DNA of 64,000 bases. Source: Camelus dromedarius (lineage: Eukaryota). Positions 50,446-60,593 of this stretch are shown here, piece by piece; within the stretch, counting starts at the first letter, position 1; every line of letters begins with the position of its first letter. Position numbers and translations under genes: made by a program. The notes below the pieces were generated by a model. It made no database searches and was not told where the DNA came from. It saw nothing but the letters and a program-made list of their open reading frames with translations. The stretch lies in NCBI RefSeq assembly GCF_036321535.1, contig NC_087436.1:28956001-29020000 (forward strand), written 5' to 3'.

Positions 50446-52721
50446 TTCACTGTAACTTTAGAACTATTATGGTTTGGATTTTAATGTGAGTCCAATATGC
50501 TTATCTTGGTTTGTCCTAGAGTTTGGAATTGTATATAAATCATAGTAGAGATGCTTTTTTATCATCTATGTCAAGAGAAGATTTCTTGTAACAACACCTG
50601 CCAGTGTAACTTAGAAGCTACTATTACCCATCACTAATAACTAGAAGCATTTTTGTAGTCTGTTCAGAGTGTTGTGGGTGGGGGTGGAGTGGGGGAGTAT
50701 TGCTTGTTTTTTATTTCTACCCAAAAGTTTCCCTGACCAGGAAATTTCATGTGAAGTTATGGGATGCGTATGTCCCCCTTTCCAAATCTCTCTGTAAAAG
50801 ATTCTCTCTATAAGCTGGAGATTGTTTTGTTTGACATCTTTTCCAACTAAAATTCATTTCATGACCCTAATTTAGATATGAGAACTGATTTGCGTCTCCA
50901 AGTTAACTGCAAAACTTGACCAGGGTCACATCATTTTAAGTAGTAGAGCTAAAATAAAATCCAGCTTGAAACAATTTCAGAATCACCGTGCTATTCTTCC
51001 ATATTGTCCATCAATTTCCCATAGTATGAAAGTTAAGGGGGAGTGATACCAGCCCGATGTATGCATTGAGTTATATGTTTAAAGCCTTTGAATTTTTTTC
51101 AAATCCTTGCTGATTATTTCAGAAAAGAGGCATTTTAGTAGATTTCTTATTGCAGTGTCAGAGCTAATTAATAATTATGTTTTTCTTAACTACTACTTGA
51201 GTTATCATCATTTCCTTCTATACATACTTTGCAAATTAATAAGTGGTGTGCTCTGCAAAGTGCCAAACACGGCAAAATGTCCTAGCCTAGGCTGAATACA
51301 TAAATATTATACGCATCACCTACTCACTTCTACTTTAATCAGTATTAATTTCAAAGTGTATATTTTGTTTAAAAAGTTTTATGCCCCTCTTGCTCTGATT
51401 TCAATTATACCTCCTTAATATCTGCACATTCTAGAAGCACCAGAATTTTAGGGCCTTTTTGTTTTCAGTTTTGAGATGTATTCCTTTCTGCTTGACAAAG
51501 CAAATAGAGTGGATATTCTATTCTTTTGCTTGTATTATAATTTCAGGAGACGATATGCCTTTTAGGTAGGAAAAAAAATTTTATTCATGCTTGATACAAA
51601 AGAACAATTCTAAGAGGTAATTTACTTAAAGCAGAGGATGTAGTAAATGTTCACAGGACATACTCTTTCAGCATAAAGTTGGGGGGGTTTTAATCTGTTT
51701 TTAAATAAATAGTGTTAATTTCAAGGTTTTAAACATACAAAAATCCACTGTGTTTCTTTTATCTTCCTGTTGGCAATAAGAAAGAATGTGGGTGCTTTAA
51801 ATCCTCCTGATGGGTCTGTCACTGGCACAATAAACTCTCCTCCAGAGCAGAAGAGGCCCTTTTCTGTCACTGTGATCTCTCGGAGTTGAAGATTGCCACG
51901 TGGGATCTCTGTCAACTTCCTAAAATGCAACCTCCTCATCTAGGCTGCCACCCGTAGCCTGACAGATTGGGTAGATGATCCCATCATCAGATCGCACTGT
52001 GTTTTACAATTTGGGGCCAGGTGTCATCTTTGGGGAAGAGACTTAAAGCTTTTGTCAGAGAGTATTTCTCTCGTTTCACTTAACATCTACTCACCTTTTG
52101 GTATCGAAAGAATAAAAAATACAAACTGATAAGGTTATCCCCAGGCAGAGTTTTCATCCAACCCAAGGCAGTCTCGGCAGTTATAAGGATCCTTCAATAA
52201 TCTGTCAAAAACTGAACCACTGTGTAAAGAGCTGTTCATTTCTATATCTCATTTTGGATTGACGTGCGTGCACCTTTATATCCTTCAGTTTGATATAACA
52301 TTTGGCCTTTCATGTTCTCAGTTTCAGCTACAGGGAATTCAAAGCTATTTCAAAGCGTAATTATACCAATCTGCATATAAGAGGCTGTATGTCCTGTAGA
52401 GGGTTGGATGGAAAAGCAAACTCTTTCAAAAAAGAAAATTAGAAGTAATTCCCACAACTAAAATTCACTAAAAGTTAATACATTTTTTTTATCTGTTAAG
52501 AACAGTTTTTTTAAAAGCCAATAGAAGATTAATCCAGAAGTGATGGGCACTTTTTGGCGAGGTAGGGAGGAGAAGAGGAACGGAGAACTGAAAATTGAGA
52601 AGGACATCAAAGAAACAGAGCAAGTACATTACATGAGTTATCTGTGAAAATGGCCACATCGCACCAGAAAAATCAATACTTCATATTGCTGTAGCAGACA
52701 ATAGGATTCTCACTTACACAG

Positions 52722-53236
52722 TGTGTTAGTTACCTGTTGCCATGTAACAATATACCCCAAAACACACTATCATCTCACAATTTGTGTGGCACACAATCCT
52801 TAGTGCAGCTTAACCGGATGCCTCTGGCTGTGGCCTCTCTTGAGACTGCAGTCAAGCTCTTGGCAGGAACCATGATCTCCTTTGAAGACATGGCTTCTTC
52901 AAGTTGAGGGAGAGGGTCTTGCTTCCAAGCTCACTCTATGGTTGTTGATAGGACTTGATCTCTGGCCACCTGGGTCTTACCACAAAACTGTCCTCATGAC
53001 ATCTCCACAAGCAGTCCACAAGAGAATGAGAGAGAGCACAAGACGTTCCCCAAGATGGAAGTCATAGCCTTTTTAGAACTAATATGAGAAGTGACATTCC
53101 CTCACTCTACCACATTCTATTCCTTAGAAGTGGGTTACTGTATCCCACCTAACTTCAAACGAAGGGGACTACTCATGGTGTAAATACCAGGAGATGGAAA
53201 TCATTATGGGCCATCCCAGAGGCTGCCTACTCCACA
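52722..53236 (-). mobile_element. MaLR LTR (MLT1F-like)
   Basis: Antisense start 'tgtgttagttacctgttgccatgtaacaatataccccaaaac', internal 'gcttccaagctcactc', end 'ggccatcccagaggctgcctactcca'. Confidence 0.85.
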
Positions 53237-54291: not shown

Positions 54292-55720
54292 GCTTCCGGT
54301 TGAAGACAGAGAAGAGGTGAATTCATGCACTAACCTTCCCTCTTCCTAAAACTTCACTGAGATTAAAAAGAAAATTTTAAACGTACAAGAGCAAATAAAA
54401 GACAAATAAACAAGTGAGGGAAACAATAGTGACAACATTTTCTAAGTTTGGAAGTAGATCAATAAGTTATAATTGACTTAGTAGCTTTGAAAATATGTAA
54501 TCTTTAGCTGGAAGTTTAGAGCATAAAGAAGATAACTGATTTATCCCACTGAAAATTCTGAAGGCTTAGGAATTGATAGAACAAATTAGTTCTGAAGTGG
54601 GAGTGAATATAAAAATAAAAAGGATAAAAAATGTCATTAAGAAGCAATTAGACTTCCAACTTACTCTCATCGACAGTACGTGTAGCTGATCGATTATCCC
54701 CTCTGGCTAGAAGACACGAGATTTGTCCTCAAGGAGGTTAAGAGAGAGATGCCTAGATTGGAAGACAGCAGGCATGTCTAATGTGAGATGATCATACCAA
54801 GAGATTTTGAATCGTGCATCTTTTCCCAGCTAGCTTTCAGAATACCATTGCCCAAGCTTATACCTCCTGGCAGAAACCCCAAAAATACTTCTCTTTGTAT
54901 TAACTAGCCCAAGAAGAAAAATATATCTAACACACTGATATTGAGGATTTCTTAATCAAATGGTCCAGACAGATCATCCTACAGACAAAGATACTCCACA
55001 GGCCCTCCAAACAAGCAGAGTGTTTGCCTTTAGCATTTTTTGAATACTGTTGTTAAATATGAGCAGGCAGCCAAGTATCACAAGACATTTGCAAAAAAAA
55101 TCTCTTCTATAATTCTTGGAAAGAGACACTATTCAGGGAAAATAAAATGTAATACAGACCATCATCAATATCTAGAGATGAATAAGAGAAAATACTGCAT
55201 ACATGAAAAACAGTTCAAAATAGCTTAAAATAGGAATATTCAGAAAACAAAAAGAACTTGGGTTCAAAATAATAATAAAATAATTAAATAAAAAGCTCAA
55301 TAGAAGCTTGGATGATAAACATGAGAAAATCTCCCAGAAAGTAGTTTTTTAAAATACAGAAAATAGGAAAGAAAAAGTGAAGAAAATTGGTAGGTTGGTG
55401 GAGGAGTTTCAGCTTCCAAATAAGGAACCAAACAAGATGAAGAAAATAAGAGTAAGAAATGATGAAAGAAATAATCCAAAACTTTTTCCAAAAACTGAAA
55501 AGCTTGCATTTAAAGATTGAAAGAGTTACTAAGTACCTACAATATGATTTAAAATAGTTACACATCAAATGACAGGATGCTATGTAATTTCAGAACTTGA
55601 TGACAAAGATCTTCTCATAAGTTTCCAAAGATGTTGGGGAAACTGCGCTCATGAAAAGTTTATTTATGAAAATGTTCTACTTCAGAAGACGATATAAAAA
55701 ACCTTTCAAAAAATCTAAGC
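54292..55720 (+). mobile_element. HAL1/L1M 5' UTR and decayed ORF1
   Basis: Start 'gcttccggttgaagacagag'; ORF1-like 'aaatctcccagaaagtag', 'aaagaaataatccaaaactttttccaaaaactgaaa...agattgaaagag'. Confidence 0.65.
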
Positions 55721-55794
55721 TTAACTTCTAACAAATTTGGCTTGAATCAAGCCTGATCAAAACCTAAAATTCTTCAGTTCTCAGAGATTTTGGT

Positions 55795-55867
55795 CCTCTC
55801 CATCCCCCTGACTTTAGGGTAGGAATCCTTCCCTCACCCATAGGGTGAACAGGAGTCAAGGAAAATA
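55795..55867 (+). mobile_element. 5' LTR remnant (U5 end only)
   Basis: 'ccatccccctgactttagggtaggaatccttccctcacccatagggtgaacagg...aaaata' aligns with the end of the 3' LTR 'ccatcccaaaaccctagcgtggcactctctccctcatcaacagagtggatag...aaaact'. Confidence 0.8.
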
Positions 55868-55869
55868 AC

Positions 55870-55884
55870 TTTTGACAGAATGGT
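55870..55884 (+). promoter_or_regulatory. Putative degenerate primer-binding site, tRNA-iMet-like
   Basis: Two nt after the LTR end: TTTTGACAGA--ATGGT versus the iMet PBS TGGTAGCAGAGGATGGT; correct position but several mismatches and a 2-nt gap. Confidence 0.4.
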
Positions 55885-56981
55885 CCAACAATGACCAAGG
55901 ACGCTCAGTCAGCCTGAATCAACTGCTCTTCAATAGCTCAGTGGTTTCATGATACAGGGAAGGCTGCCTCGGATTCAGCCGCTGATTGCTGGTGGAGTGG
56001 ACCTGTGCTTTGGTCTATTGAGCACTGTGTTGTCTGTATCTGGTGTTGCCTTTTCTTCCCACCCTAAAATGTTCTTGTCCTCAGGAGAAGAGTTGTTAAT
56101 TGACTAAACGTAGGCATGGTGTGCTTTCAGATTCAGTCTGTTTTTGGCGTTGGCGGGGGCAGTCTCTGGGACTCCTGCCTTTAAACAAAGAGGCAACACG
56201 GCACCTTAACCGGTCGGTTGGTGCTTGAGTTCCCCTTACCATGGATGAGCTAGAACTCTCTGGTCACTGTGTCTAACCTGGTATCCATCACTAGCTGCTT
56301 AGGGCAGCCATATGGACATTATTTGTGATTGTACACCCTCAGGAGGAACCCAGGGGTGGCGCACTGTGAATTTTGTGGAAATGGAGATCACCGCCCTAGG
56401 AATAATTAAGCAGGGCATCCAAATCATCTAACAATAACCATTCAGGCCAGGTAGCTAGCTACCTGTGCTACCGTTTCCCATGCTGCTGTCCTGTGTGTTC
56501 TCCCGACCCTAACAAGGGTATCAAGATACTTATCTTCAGAAACCTATGGCCCAGGCAATGATAAAATAAAACAATAATAATGAGAAGTAGAAGGAGCATT
56601 GGGTACCAACCCCTCTTGAAGCAACGGAGGTGGTGACACAACTGCTCTTCCAATAAAAAGCCCCTGATCCACGTGCCAGGGCTTTTGTTAGAGCTGCTGA
56701 CTACTAGGTCCAAAGGCTAATCTGATTGCATGGCTTGATTGCCCAGCCAGCACTGTCAACATAAAAACCTTCCTGGAGGTGGACCCTGACCCTGGGAACA
56801 CTGCCTGATACTCCCGGGAGGAGAAGATAGCTGAGATAGCTCAGCTCCCAAACTCTTTCCCCTCAGCAGCCCAGAAGGTCTGCCCCAAGAGTATCAGATG
56901 GAGACAGAAACTGAAAGCCACATCTATTTTACATGACTATAAATCCAAAATATTCTGAGAAAATTATACAAAGAGAAAGAG

Positions 56982-57131
<150 letters not shown>

Positions 57132-57157
57132 GACAGGCAGGCAAGCCCATAGGGGTA

Positions 57158-57228
57158 TAACAGAGGCTGATTTTGAACAATGACCTCTGGGTTTGGGGCC
57201 CAGAACCCTTCTAATGTGCCACTCTGTT
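57158..57228 (-). pseudogene. Full-length initiator tRNA-Met-derived pseudogene (anticodon position now CCA)
   Basis: Minus strand reads AACAGAGTGGCACATTAGAAGGGTTCTGGGCCCCAAACCCAGAGGTCATTGTTCAAAATCAGCCTCTGTTA; 56 of 72 positions match recalled mammalian tRNA-iMet by hand alignment. Acceptor and anticodon stems pair fully; D and T stems are damaged. Confidence 0.9.
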
Positions 57229-57689
57229 GACTGTTTCTCTGTTGCAACAAAGATCCTAATTCTCAGGATAATAAGGAAAAACATCCATGACACCCCTATG
57301 GCAAAGCAAAGGGACTCCTGAAATTCTATAATGTAGCCATTGCCTTGGGGGAGGTTATAATACTGATGATACTGGTTTAAAGCTTTCTGAGTGAAAATCT
57401 CATACATAAGAGCAGGATACAAAGAATCTCCACCACTATCACCACCATCAAATGAATCCAGTGGCAAAAGGAAGAAAAAAAGAAAGGAAGGAAGTAGGAA
57501 GGAAGGACTGAATCTTGGTTATAAAGAGAGAAAACAAAAAAGTTAAAACAAATGTGTAGAATTTGGCCTTAGAAATCCAAAACTTACTAAAAGAATATAA
57601 CAAAAAGGTAAGAACACCGCTAACTGGCTTTTGCGCCTCTGTAACATAGGTTCTGAATTAATTAATGTCTGTTCAGATGTACCAAATGG

Positions 57690-59850
57690 CAAACTCTTAT
57701 GGATTTAATCAATACTGGGACTTAAGTGACAGTTATACATTGGATCCCACTAAATTTAAATATAATACCACTTATAATGTTAGAGGAATCACTGAATACA
57801 AAATAAAGGACAAATCAGTAAGCACCACTTTAATCACCAAACTATTAACGTTCCTAAATTTCCCATGGTCATAGCACCCGTTTCCCTAATTTTAGCACAC
57901 TTCTAGAATGGGCATGGATGGTTGGACATAACAAGAAATATATTGTAATTAAAGTAATACTTTGGCACTGAATTGTCCTGGAAAAAATGGGAGCCAATGG
58001 ACCCCATTTCCCCAGTTAAAATAATTAATACGACCAAATGTAAATTAAAACAAAGCATCCAAGTATTGAAACATAAAAGACCTACTGAGTGAAGGAGTGG
58101 TTATCCCCTCTGCTTCTCCAGTTAACAGTACGATTTGTTCTGTTCTTAATCCTGGAAAGAATGAATGGCATCTCATGGTGGATTACCACAACCTTAATGC
58201 TATGGTCCAATCCAATAAGACCACCATAACCAACACCCAATATTGTTTTAAATTACCAATTCAACCCAATCAATAACCAATACATATTTTGCTATTATAG
58301 ATTTGTCTACTATGTTCTGTTCAATGCCTATTTCAACAACTTCTGAGCCACAGTTTGCCCTGATCTCCAAAATAACACAATCCACCTCTCTCAGGCTACC
58401 CAGAGCACCTCAGTAGCCTGGCTGCCACACACAATCTTTGCTGCTAAGACAGTAACTGCATGCCCCCTTCTCCAGGAGCCCAGGTATGATATTACGTTGA
58501 TGGCATCTTCTGAGGAGGTTTGTCAGACATATACATTTAGGAATATAAATTCTCAAAAAGGAGCTCACAAAAAAGGGGATGGGCCGTTGCCCTCCACATA
58601 GTACAGGACCCTGTCACTTCTGTTAAATTCCTGAAAATTCTCTGGTAAACTGAGGGCTGCTCCATCTAGACACTGGCAAGAAGCAGCAACTGACTCTTCT
58701 CAGCACCTACAGTGTTTATAAAATCCAGTATCTTTTAGGTCTTTGGAGGTTCTGGAGGCAATGCATTACTTATTTACAAAGCTCATGTATGCAGTCACTT
58801 GCAAATCATCCCACCTTTAGTGGGGAACGCTCAAACCAAAGGCTCCAGAATCTGTCCAAATTGAGATCAGCAGGCACTCTCATTAGTGTCTGAGTTTCCT
58901 TCACTGTAGAGACTTTAGCAACCTCTTCTCAAGGCATGTGGCGTCTCTGGACCACCTAGGATTGCCATAAAAACTGCCCTCCTTGGCCTGCACCAGATAC
59001 CATTAGAGTGGTGACGGCTGGCCACATGCTCAGCAATTCTGAAAGCAGTCTCTCACAGACCCTGGACATCTGTTCCTCCACACCAAGCTGGCCATTATGC
59101 CTCAGGTCATGGGAGCAGCACTCCACCAGCCCTGCAATGTGACTGGGGCCTCCTTTCTCCAGGCTGGAGCCAACCTGGACCCTCTGACCACATCCCACCT
59201 GCAGGAGGGGCTAGCCTCACTTCTCCTCTGTCCTTTGCCAGATGCCACAGTGCTAGAGGAGGTCAAACCAGTCCCAGAGAGTCCCTTGGGAGCAATTGAG
59301 TGACCATTAATAGGTGTTTATACACTTTGTGGACCATATTGCCACCATTATATAGGATGGAGCTCAGTGGAATGTTGCTGCTTTCCATTCCTAATCCAAG
59401 GTGTCCCTGATAAGTGACAGGAACTAAGGGTCAGCACAGCTGGCCACACATCAGACAATCATCTTAGCATCAGAGACCTTGGCCAGTAAATGGCCCCATC
59501 TGTATATTTTTTATAAATTCTTATGTGTTGTGTAAAAATTGACTGCTTTGAGGTAAAGGAGTCTGACAATCTCTTGCCTCACAGAGATCTAAACTATAAA
59601 TAAAGGCAATAGTTGTTATTACCTGTACTAATCCCCTAATCCAAGGCCTCACCTGAACACGCCTTATCCCTTCGGAATTCCGGAGATCATTAATAGTCAC
59701 CAAGGCATTCATTTCACTTTTCAAAGCAGACAATATTGTGCTCTTGAAGAAGTCATTCAATGCAATTTCCATGTCCCTTCAAAGCCCCAGACATTCAGTT
59801 TAATTGAGGCACAATGGCCCCCTCAAAGAGCTCCGAAGAGAGCAAATGGA
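57690..59850 (+). pseudogene. pol: ERV-L-type pro-pol remnant (protease, RT, RNase H, integrase core) with many stops and frameshifts
   Basis: Hand translation: PR 'LINTGT*VTVI' (NTG 57711-57719); RT 'EGVVIPSASPVNSTICSVLNPGKNEWHLMVDYHNLN' (to 58198), 'YFAIIDLSTMFCSMPI', 'YVDGI' (58493; the YIDD motif), 'SVKFLKILW', 'LLGLWRFWRQCI'; RH 'FVDH...GSAQLA' (from 59326); IN 'FGIPEIINSHQGIHFT...FHVPSKPQTFSLIE-HNGPLK' (from 59671). Confidence 0.93.
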
Positions 59851-60116
59851 CGCCCTGCTATTGCCACAGGCACAGATTAATCTGAAGCCACATCCCCTGA
59901 GGACAAGCGCTCCCTATACTAAAGCCACACAGATTCCTCAATTTCCTTTATCGGCCACAAAAGGACTGCCCCTAAAGTTCACGTTTTTGAAAACCACCTT
60001 GCTACGTGGCCCTCCTCCTCTTCAAGTGCCTGCTTCACGTCCTAAAGAGGCACTTCTTCCTACTCCCTAGAAATCTCAGTTCATCGCCAAGGTAAAAATT
60101 GATGTCAAGTCATCAA

Positions 60117-60593
60117 AGAGTTAATTATGGTCCAAGAATGAAAATTAAGGCCCAGTGTTGTGCACTGCCTTGACATCTGGAATAACCAGGAGTGCCTTAA
60201 ATAACCAAACCTCACCTTCCTCATTTTCCTCCTGGAGATAAGATCCCTTAGCCAAACCATTCTCCTCATCAGTGAGTTTCATTTCCTGACCAGCCCCATT
60301 GAATTCAAACAAGCCAGTCCCATCCTCCAGCCGGAACCAAGGAGAACACCTCCCTCTCGAAACCTGCTTCTTCTAGCCCCTGGTTTCCCCTCTGTCCCTG
60401 AGTGTAACCTCACACTGTGGCCCTGTGTTTTGTGTGGTGTCCTTCTCCCCCAAAGCTGGGAGAATATGTGACCAATAGTTGTTGTCAGTTTCACCCGTCT
60501 GTCCAGGGTCAGATGTTGTGTGTTCCCCATCCCAAAACCCTAGCGTGGCACTCTCTCCCTCATCAACAGAGTGGATAGCTGACGGTTAAAACT
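60117..60593 (+). mobile_element. 3' LTR, MER74/LTR53-like (ERVL)
   Basis: 'ttaattatggtccaagaatgaaaattaaggcccagtgttgtgcactgccttgacatctgg', 'gataagatcccttagccaaac', 'ttcaaacaagccagtcccatcctcc', 'atatgtgaccaatag'; its end is homologous to 55795-55867. Confidence 0.85.

Follow-up and report, generated by a model that had tools for sequence, protein, structure and literature searches.

An initiator tRNA-Met (iMet) sequence is carried, in antisense orientation and at one and the same site, by independent copies of an endogenous retrovirus (ERV), and most probably records an event in which an old ERV subfamily of class III type captured a host tRNA and multiplied it together with itself without giving it a function. 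The window, by which is meant the whole 64-kb stretch of DNA that was analysed (C1:28956001-29020000), holds one of these copies, and the others were obtained from searches of the 2.3 Gb assembly (sequences of the assembly are designated C, and loci L).

The copy in the window is a genuine, decayed, full-length initiator tRNA-Met, as had been claimed in the original prediction, which was made from the letters of the window. It covers the full length of the Rfam tRNA model at a score that does not reach the gathering score of 29, and is identical to the intact host iMet gene L036 at 56/72 positions (22 % divergence, one base deleted; z = 15 against 300 shuffles). A reverse transcriptase (RT) fragment found with phmmer (MLV RT, E 3e-4) is on the + strand of the element, which makes the tRNA antisense to it, and the protease-like motif starts at 57711, which is 483 nt from the tRNA and agrees with the predicted distance of about 480 bp. 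The absence of a 3′ CCA, a poly(A) and a target-site duplication (TSD) was likewise borne out, the longest flanking direct repeat being 5 nt. The downstream flank is T-rich as described, but mainly because an (AAAG)n microsatellite (approximately 56975-57130) is read there on its reverse strand, and a run of four or more T within 20 nt of the tRNA 3′ end is seen in 4/9 copies (L002, L066, L026, L019), not including that of the window. The placement of the tRNA between gag and protease has to be corrected, since the only recognisable Gag-like piece (~57546-57690) is downstream of the tRNA, and the sequence in which the tRNA stands is probably non-coding. The features of a functional tRNA-iMet gene were not found: there is no intact cloverleaf or CAT (the anticodon is now CCA), the Rfam score is below gathering, and ARAGORN at default settings called no tRNA gene in the 64-kb window. 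The fold z was -1.4, compared with -2.8 for a host iMet gene. The stretch is present in 20/24 listed sequencing runs (three labelled organisms, 8 studies), 13 of the 20 being possible sources; contigs of two other runs, possibly close to the source assembly, span 57135-57800 unbroken and without difference. None of the listed runs with the stretch was labelled as RNA. Short contigs over 57135-57465 only were obtained from two runs guessed to be RNA, which says nothing on expression either way.

The element is about 5 kb long with gag-pro-pol remnants, and the tRNA is located about 1.3 kb inside its internal region (Table 1).

Table 1 Features of the ERV and of its tRNA insert, in positions of the window
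Feature	Position	Strand	Evidence or remark
3′ end remnant of 5′ LTR	55800..55865	+	aligns to last ~65 nt of L009, L002 and L080 LTRs; 66 % to window 3′ LTR over 88 nt
Primer-binding site (PBS), decayed beyond recognition in window	55866..55890	+	10/18 Ser, 9/18 iMet; paralogue PBSs are of Ser(CGA) type
Subfamily-X internal 5′ region (“leader A”)	55885..56965	+	65-74 % to L007, L002; no Pfam hit; stops in all six frames
Purine tract, expanded to (AAAG)n/(AAGG)n microsatellite, bounding the tRNA-bearing segment on the left	56966..57134	+	
tRNA 3′ trailer, no CCA	57135..57157	-	T-run next in several paralogues
Full-length decayed iMet copy	57158..57228	-	RF00005, 27.5 bits; 56/72 to host iMet, z 15
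Flank common to tRNA-bearing and tRNA-less copies, ending in ATG at 57287	57229..57289	+	
Broken fragment like start of ERV-L capsid (Gag)	57546..57690	+	by-eye match to HERVL Gag; out of frame with protease
Broken aspartic-protease-like region	57700..57940	+	motif 57711; by-eye match to HERVL Pro
Broken pol region	57990..60150	+	RT confirmed ~58067-58240; rest by homology to paralogues
3′ LTR (type X)	60198..60591	+	aligns over nearly whole L009 LTR; 68 % to L002 5′ LTR

Both LTRs and a PBS are present in the proviruses L007/L009 and L005/L080, and a short purine tract is found in paralogues at the place of the microsatellite, also in the tRNA-less copy L005. The ATG about 58 nt downstream of the tRNA 5′ end is kept in 18/25 covered copies of both subfamilies described below. 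The Gag-like piece stands 37 nt before the protease motif with the same +1 frame offset in 17/23 copies, and in 19/24 copies the protease is followed by a stop at a single homologous codon (counted from translated peptides). These lesions, common to many copies, point to defective masters, so that the family was probably non-autonomous and mobilised in trans. The identities of LTR pairs are 80 % (226/282) and 72 % (322/445), and the terminal branches in the trees are about 0.2. With a neutral rate taken as near 2e-9 per site per year, an age of roughly 60-100 million years would follow for the element.

The assignment to a class is based on several lines of comparison. The Gag, Pro and Pol pieces are like those of HERVL by eye, and the best PDB match by phmmer was MLV RT, followed by foamy-virus Pol (E 4e-3, RT region). 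No retroviral domain was detected by Pfam in sets of 6 and 33 single-frame translations, and searches with the Gag-like piece gave no match by any tool, so its identity rests on by-eye comparison with HERVL Gag (PMC4724089 supplement). The RT stretch retrieved 36 mostly short unnamed proteins with phmmer (of 10 looked up, one was named, and was unrelated), and for the best of these matches no relative of greater length was found. Taking the Gag/Pro/Pol likeness together with a HERVS-type PBS, the element may well be of the ERV-L/ERV-S type (class III). The names MER74 and HERVL74 occur, as names only, in the accessible part of PMC5753468.

Several other features of the element and its surroundings were observed. 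A splice-acceptor-like motif is located about 20 nt before the shared ATG (window 57260-57270) in many copies, by eye. A Cys-X2-Cys..His spacing like that of a zinc knuckle is present at ~56360-56400 of the window and ~920-960 of L002, in some X copies and not in all, far upstream of the place expected for a nucleocapsid. The truncated 5′ LTR adjoins what we take to be L1-like sequence (54600-55730), and an LTR further upstream (52720-53230) is presumably MLT1-like. Long, opposite-oriented (AAAG)n tracts at 166-317 and 56975-57130 are the top inverted-repeat matches in the window, and are simple repeats only.

Paralogues from the genome searches are approximately 65-75 % identical to the window, and the site of the tRNA was readable in 26 copies, not counting L079, a segmental duplicate; some 16 other loci were without the site or interrupted there. 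The copy counts are lower bounds, as 40/113 candidates were scored and loci were examined for 30/62 matches plus others from further searches. The tRNA was found at the same site and in the same orientation in 9/26 readable copies, including the window. Rather than being absent from other copies of the family, it is thus present in eight of them, on C6, C8, C13 (two), C7 and C37 (three), and these tRNA-bearing paralogues are only ~69 % identical to one another. Six copies are full length (window, L002, L060, L011, L066, L063; 48-59/72 identical to host iMet, z 7-16), two partial copies are above background (L007, z 3.4; L026, z 5.4), and the partial copy in L019 (z 1.5) was recognised by eye only. 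The Rfam scan of 19 paralogous loci detected the tRNA of L002 alone (E 0.55), and the other copies were recognised through direct alignment to host iMet. Searching the genome by pattern, with up to 3 mismatches, gave no additional ERV-borne iMet copies. No TSD was found at the tRNA in any of the 7 copies tested, the longest flanking repeat being 4-6 nt. Since independent paralogues have the tRNA at one site and with one orientation, it was replicated with the element as cargo of the family and is not a later single insertion, and the predicted capture and propagation by the ERV lineage is upheld.

Some of these loci have rearrangements of their own. L026/L062 and L079 (C8:16.07 and 10.00 Mb) are a near-identical proviral pair, apparently a segmental duplication, in which L079 breaks off inside the tRNA and retains its 3′ half. 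In the copy made up of L060 and L081 (C37:33.39 Mb), the 5′ LTR and leader are inverted relative to the tRNA-bearing part. L061 (C24:19.10 Mb) is an X copy with a good PBS from which the tRNA, gag and protease region is deleted, and L063 (C7:68.58 Mb) has a tRNA with an intact CAT anticodon and an insertion of ~25 nt near the 3′ end, preceded by unrelated sequence.

Two subfamilies share a common gag-pro-pol core. Subfamily X is defined by one LTR type and its 5′ region, and subfamily Y by a different 5′ region and, where visible (L012; also the unassigned L013), a different LTR. The tRNA is present in 8/9 readable X copies and in L063, of which the 5′ region is missing, and in 0/16 Y copies. 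Accordingly, 16 of the 17 readable copies without tRNA have the other leader, and one (L005), the X exception, has the same leader. Another segment of ~90 nt takes the site of the tRNA in 16 copies (L071 was placed among them from its leader and by eye) and is deleted in L012; it is unrelated to iMet in 8/8 copies tested (z under 2, both strands). L005 (C37:21.43 Mb) is chimeric, with X LTRs, PBS and 5′ region but the Y segment at the tRNA site. In the trees, which have a star-like shape, the tRNA copies do not come together as one clade, though the AU test does not reject such a grouping (p 0.22). Tree 1 (30 rows, 1271 columns), with 20/27 inner branches open and three rows on long branches, probably owing to non-homologous tails, is uninformative; tree 2 (24 rows projected on L007, 2178 columns; a one-copy projection can bias) has 14/21 inner branches open, and groups L005 and the window copy as sisters (97/85, starred). 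A reading of L005 as the ancestral empty allele is weakened by this sister position, which fits later loss of the tRNA by recombination as well as an ancestral state. The tRNA can serve as a marker for sorting recombination among old class III families. A later insertion of ~630 nt was also observed inside the protease region of L005.

The carried tRNA is not the primer of the element, because all six readable PBSs match host tRNA-Ser(CGA) and not iMet. Compared with the 3′ end of that tRNA, the matches of 18 are 17 in L007, 16 in L011 (L082) and L061, 15 in L026 (L062) and L005 (L080), and 13 in L079, and among the six 5′ regions compared the match to iMet is at most 10/18. Decay has gone too far in L002, L066 and the window for their PBSs to be assigned (10-11/18). 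The suggestion that the ERV supplied its own iMet primer for reverse transcription is therefore contradicted by PBSs that match Ser(CGA) at 13-17/18, including those of the tRNA-bearing L007, L011 and L026, and iMet is moreover abundant in the host, with its 12 genes; we give self-priming an almost negligible probability. In its favour are the ambiguous PBS of L066 (Ser 11/18, iMet 10/18) and the Met-type PBS recorded for 33/87 HERVL chains by Vargiu 2016 (PMC4724089), the accessible part of which does not state which Met is meant and the supplements of which contain 0 occurrences of the iMet-type PBS string. One HERVS chain in the supplement of that study, as far as available, has the same Ser(CGA)-type PBS.

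Decay of the tRNA was compared with that of its surroundings. Over the 15 pairs of the six full copies, the tRNA has a mean identity of 0.694, against 0.693 for the 110-nt flank, and 0-1 of 5 CpGs survive in the six copies. With the tRNA no better kept than the flank and its CpGs lost, there is no sign of constraint on it after integration, and the view of the tRNA as a working gene finds no support here. Identity to iMet outside CpGs is 297/366 (81 %), about that expected of neutral decay from intact iMet, and the masters may consequently have carried a near-intact iMet. Shared non-CpG changes number 24 versus 15.9 expected (P 0.035, simple independent-decay model), among them one that affects positions 8-9, where the A box begins, in 3/6 full copies; the excess over independent decay suggests that replicating masters were drifting while the lineage was still active. 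The best-kept parts are the acceptor 5′ strand, the anticodon stem and the T-loop (0.90-0.93), and the worst is the T-stem (0.65); the T-loop retains 27/30 positions and the D-arm/A-box region 56/71. The antisense tRNA also makes two upstream ATGs on the sense strand of the element (anticodon and T-stem positions). Most copies have lost the original third base of the anticodon, with replacement letters that differ among them, which could be selection against upstream starts and is not significant when all columns are counted.

Other iMet sequences of the genome served as controls. The host has 12 intact initiator tRNA-Met genes by pattern search, and ARAGORN called L036 as tRNA-Met CAT. Ten of the 12 are clustered on C19, where two (L039/L040, 17.88 Mb) form an inverted duplication with common flanks and a T-stem variant. 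Six iMet pseudogenes outside this ERV (L059, L074-L078; on C9, C2, C7, C4, C19 and C21) are 3′-truncated or internally deleted; four of them end at the anticodon loop, and L074, L075, L076 and L078 have flanking target-site duplications by eye. These six are tailless retropseudogenes. As they are truncated or deleted and four have the duplication, traits that are absent from the ERV tRNA with its six full-length copies and seven tested sites, the ERV tRNA is not an ordinary L1 retrocopy. The original preference for a tRNA gene over an L1 retrocopy was correct to that extent, but an intact, working gene is not supported.

For the route of capture, a template switch onto a pre-tRNA, with the tRNA carried thereafter as a passenger, is the best explanation, to which we give an even chance. 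A class III LTR element, primed on host tRNA-Ser(CGA), would have been copied in trans by a helper, and in one subfamily-X ancestor a full-length iMet with ~30 nt of trailer would have been placed ~58 nt upstream of the conserved ATG, at the end of the 5′ internal region. Reverse transcriptase would have switched template onto a co-packaged pre-tRNA, 5′-trimmed, with its trailer kept and without CCA; plus-strand copying would have run to the tRNA 5′ end and jumped back at 5-7 nt of microhomology. Copying into the plus strand would render the tRNA antisense, in the same polarity as the primer tRNA copied into the PBS. The new allele would then have spread in the subfamily by replication, the tRNA being tolerated as a passenger, with neutral decay since integration.

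The ends of the insert are consistent with such a switch. Every tRNA copy starts at position 1 and adjoins sequence common to tRNA-less copies, and the 5-7 nt at the join also end the ~90-nt segment of the tRNA-less copies. None of the tRNA-bearing copies has a 3′ CCA, and a common trailer of ~30 nt with a T-run leads to the purine tract that L005 shares. In tRNA processing the 5′ end is trimmed before the 3′ end, which gives a 5′-trimmed, 3′-unprocessed pre-tRNA, and the start at +1, the lack of CCA and the trailer with its T-run correspond to this form. Packaging of pre-tRNAs with leaders and trailers by MLV is reported in PMC4378196, in the accessible part of which pre-tRNA-iMet is not named among the packaged RNAs, and retroviruses patch in host RNA via microhomology according to the available text of PMC4997597. 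No trailer or leader of the 12 host iMet genes matches the copies beyond chance, so that the trailer is only presumably of cellular origin. A BLAST extension of L002 into the trailer of one host gene was dismissed as chance, as the other copies are without it.

The antisense orientation, the lack of CCA and the terminator-like T-run would equally be explained if the tRNA were a passenger acquired from a read-through transcript of a provirus beside an opposite-oriented iMet gene, co-packaged and recombined with the terminator included, a mechanism described for oncogene transduction (PMC4997597, accessible part). We regard this route as unlikely though worth serious consideration: the copies have no 5′ gene flank, the junction at tRNA position 1 needs a chance microhomology, and host iMet gene flanks are not matched. 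The +1 junction also occurs in the L1-type iMet pseudogenes and so does not by itself single out the template switch. Placement of a tailless pre-tRNA copy in a master provirus by L1, with a target deletion instead of a TSD and subsequent amplification, could draw on the existence in this genome of iMet copies of that kind that start at +1, and L1 makes tailless tRNA copies from processed or unprocessed forms (PMC5322556, as far as available). That insertion is nevertheless improbable, since the L1 iMet copies of the genome are 3′-truncated, have TSDs and mostly T-rich priming ends, and the ERV copy spans the entire tRNA, shows no TSD and is purine-rich on the priming side.

A further alternative is that the tRNA was retained as a cis element, as an antisense Pol III promoter, a TFIIIC boundary or an RNA segment able to pair with host iMet directly before the start codon, comparable to the tRNA-Lys3-like sequence of HIV-1 U3-R. 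A near-intact tRNA in the masters may also be predicted by function, and the presence of the tRNA in nearly all readable subfamily-X copies, together with the good preservation of the acceptor 5′ strand, anticodon stem and T-loop, would fit. Against this, conservation does not exceed that of the flank, the T-stem is the worst-kept part, the start of the A box is changed in half of the full copies with shared changes in excess, and the sister subfamily Y spread in 16 copies without the tRNA; retention for a cis function is accordingly quite unlikely. It is doubtful to the same degree that the lineage domesticated iMet as a working cis element, be it an antisense Pol III unit inside the element or a full-length anti-iMet RNA 58 nt ahead of the start codon, that pairs with or recruits host iMet for packaging, strand transfer or translation control. 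If that were true, no earlier retroviral lineage is known to have borne and exploited a tRNA gene that is not that of its primer, and a functional tRNA segment would represent a type of retroviral cis element not known before; the present evidence favours a passenger.

A tRNA-Lys3-like sequence related to the virus's own primer was reportedly described in HIV-1 U3-R by Piekna-Przybylska in 2010, and is said to aid strand transfer. HIV-1 U3-R thus likewise embeds a tRNA-gene-like sequence, but the tRNA of the present ERV is not of the primer species and is in the 5′ internal region. No report of this iMet insert was found in full-text searches of the literature, and subscription papers or Repbase/Dfam entries may note it. 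Helenus and the Cassandra/Ajax TRIMs are likewise non-autonomous LTR elements that amplify host small-RNA-gene sequence; according to the accessible part of PMC10886601, Helenus and Cassandra have the tRNA or 5S in the LTR, with A/B boxes kept and a proposed promoter role, and are ~1 kb in length. Unlike Helenus/TRIMp3, this ERV has its tRNA internal and antisense in an element several times as long with coding remnants, and the main text of PMC10886601 contains 0 occurrences of “ERV” or “mammal”. HERVL and HERVS, as presented in the available part of PMC4724089, which makes no mention of a tRNA insert in them, are similar by eye in the Gag piece, protease and RT (HERVL) and have the Ser(CGA)-type PBS (HERVS); unlike in these, most of the capsid is missing here and lesions are common across copies. 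The tailless tRNA retropseudogenes of Noll 2015 (PMC5322556) are likewise tRNA copies without poly(A), but those in the part of that study available are 3′-truncated single insertions with TSDs, and the present copy is complete, lacks any TSD and was multiplied by an ERV, a route for the multiplication of tRNA pseudogenes in mammalian genomes that is separate from L1 and SINEs. Capture of host sequence by retroelements is already known, and the tRNA cargo is a variant of it. Retroviral transduction or patch repair and pre-tRNA packaging (PMC4997597, PMC4378196) supply the substrate and the microhomology-guided template switch. The cases in the accessible parts of these two sources are single-cycle laboratory or clinical events, whereas here the product is fixed in a replicating lineage, as a germ-line fossil of a retroelement that captured a whole host tRNA and then amplified it, a process otherwise known from cell-culture packaging and recombination work.
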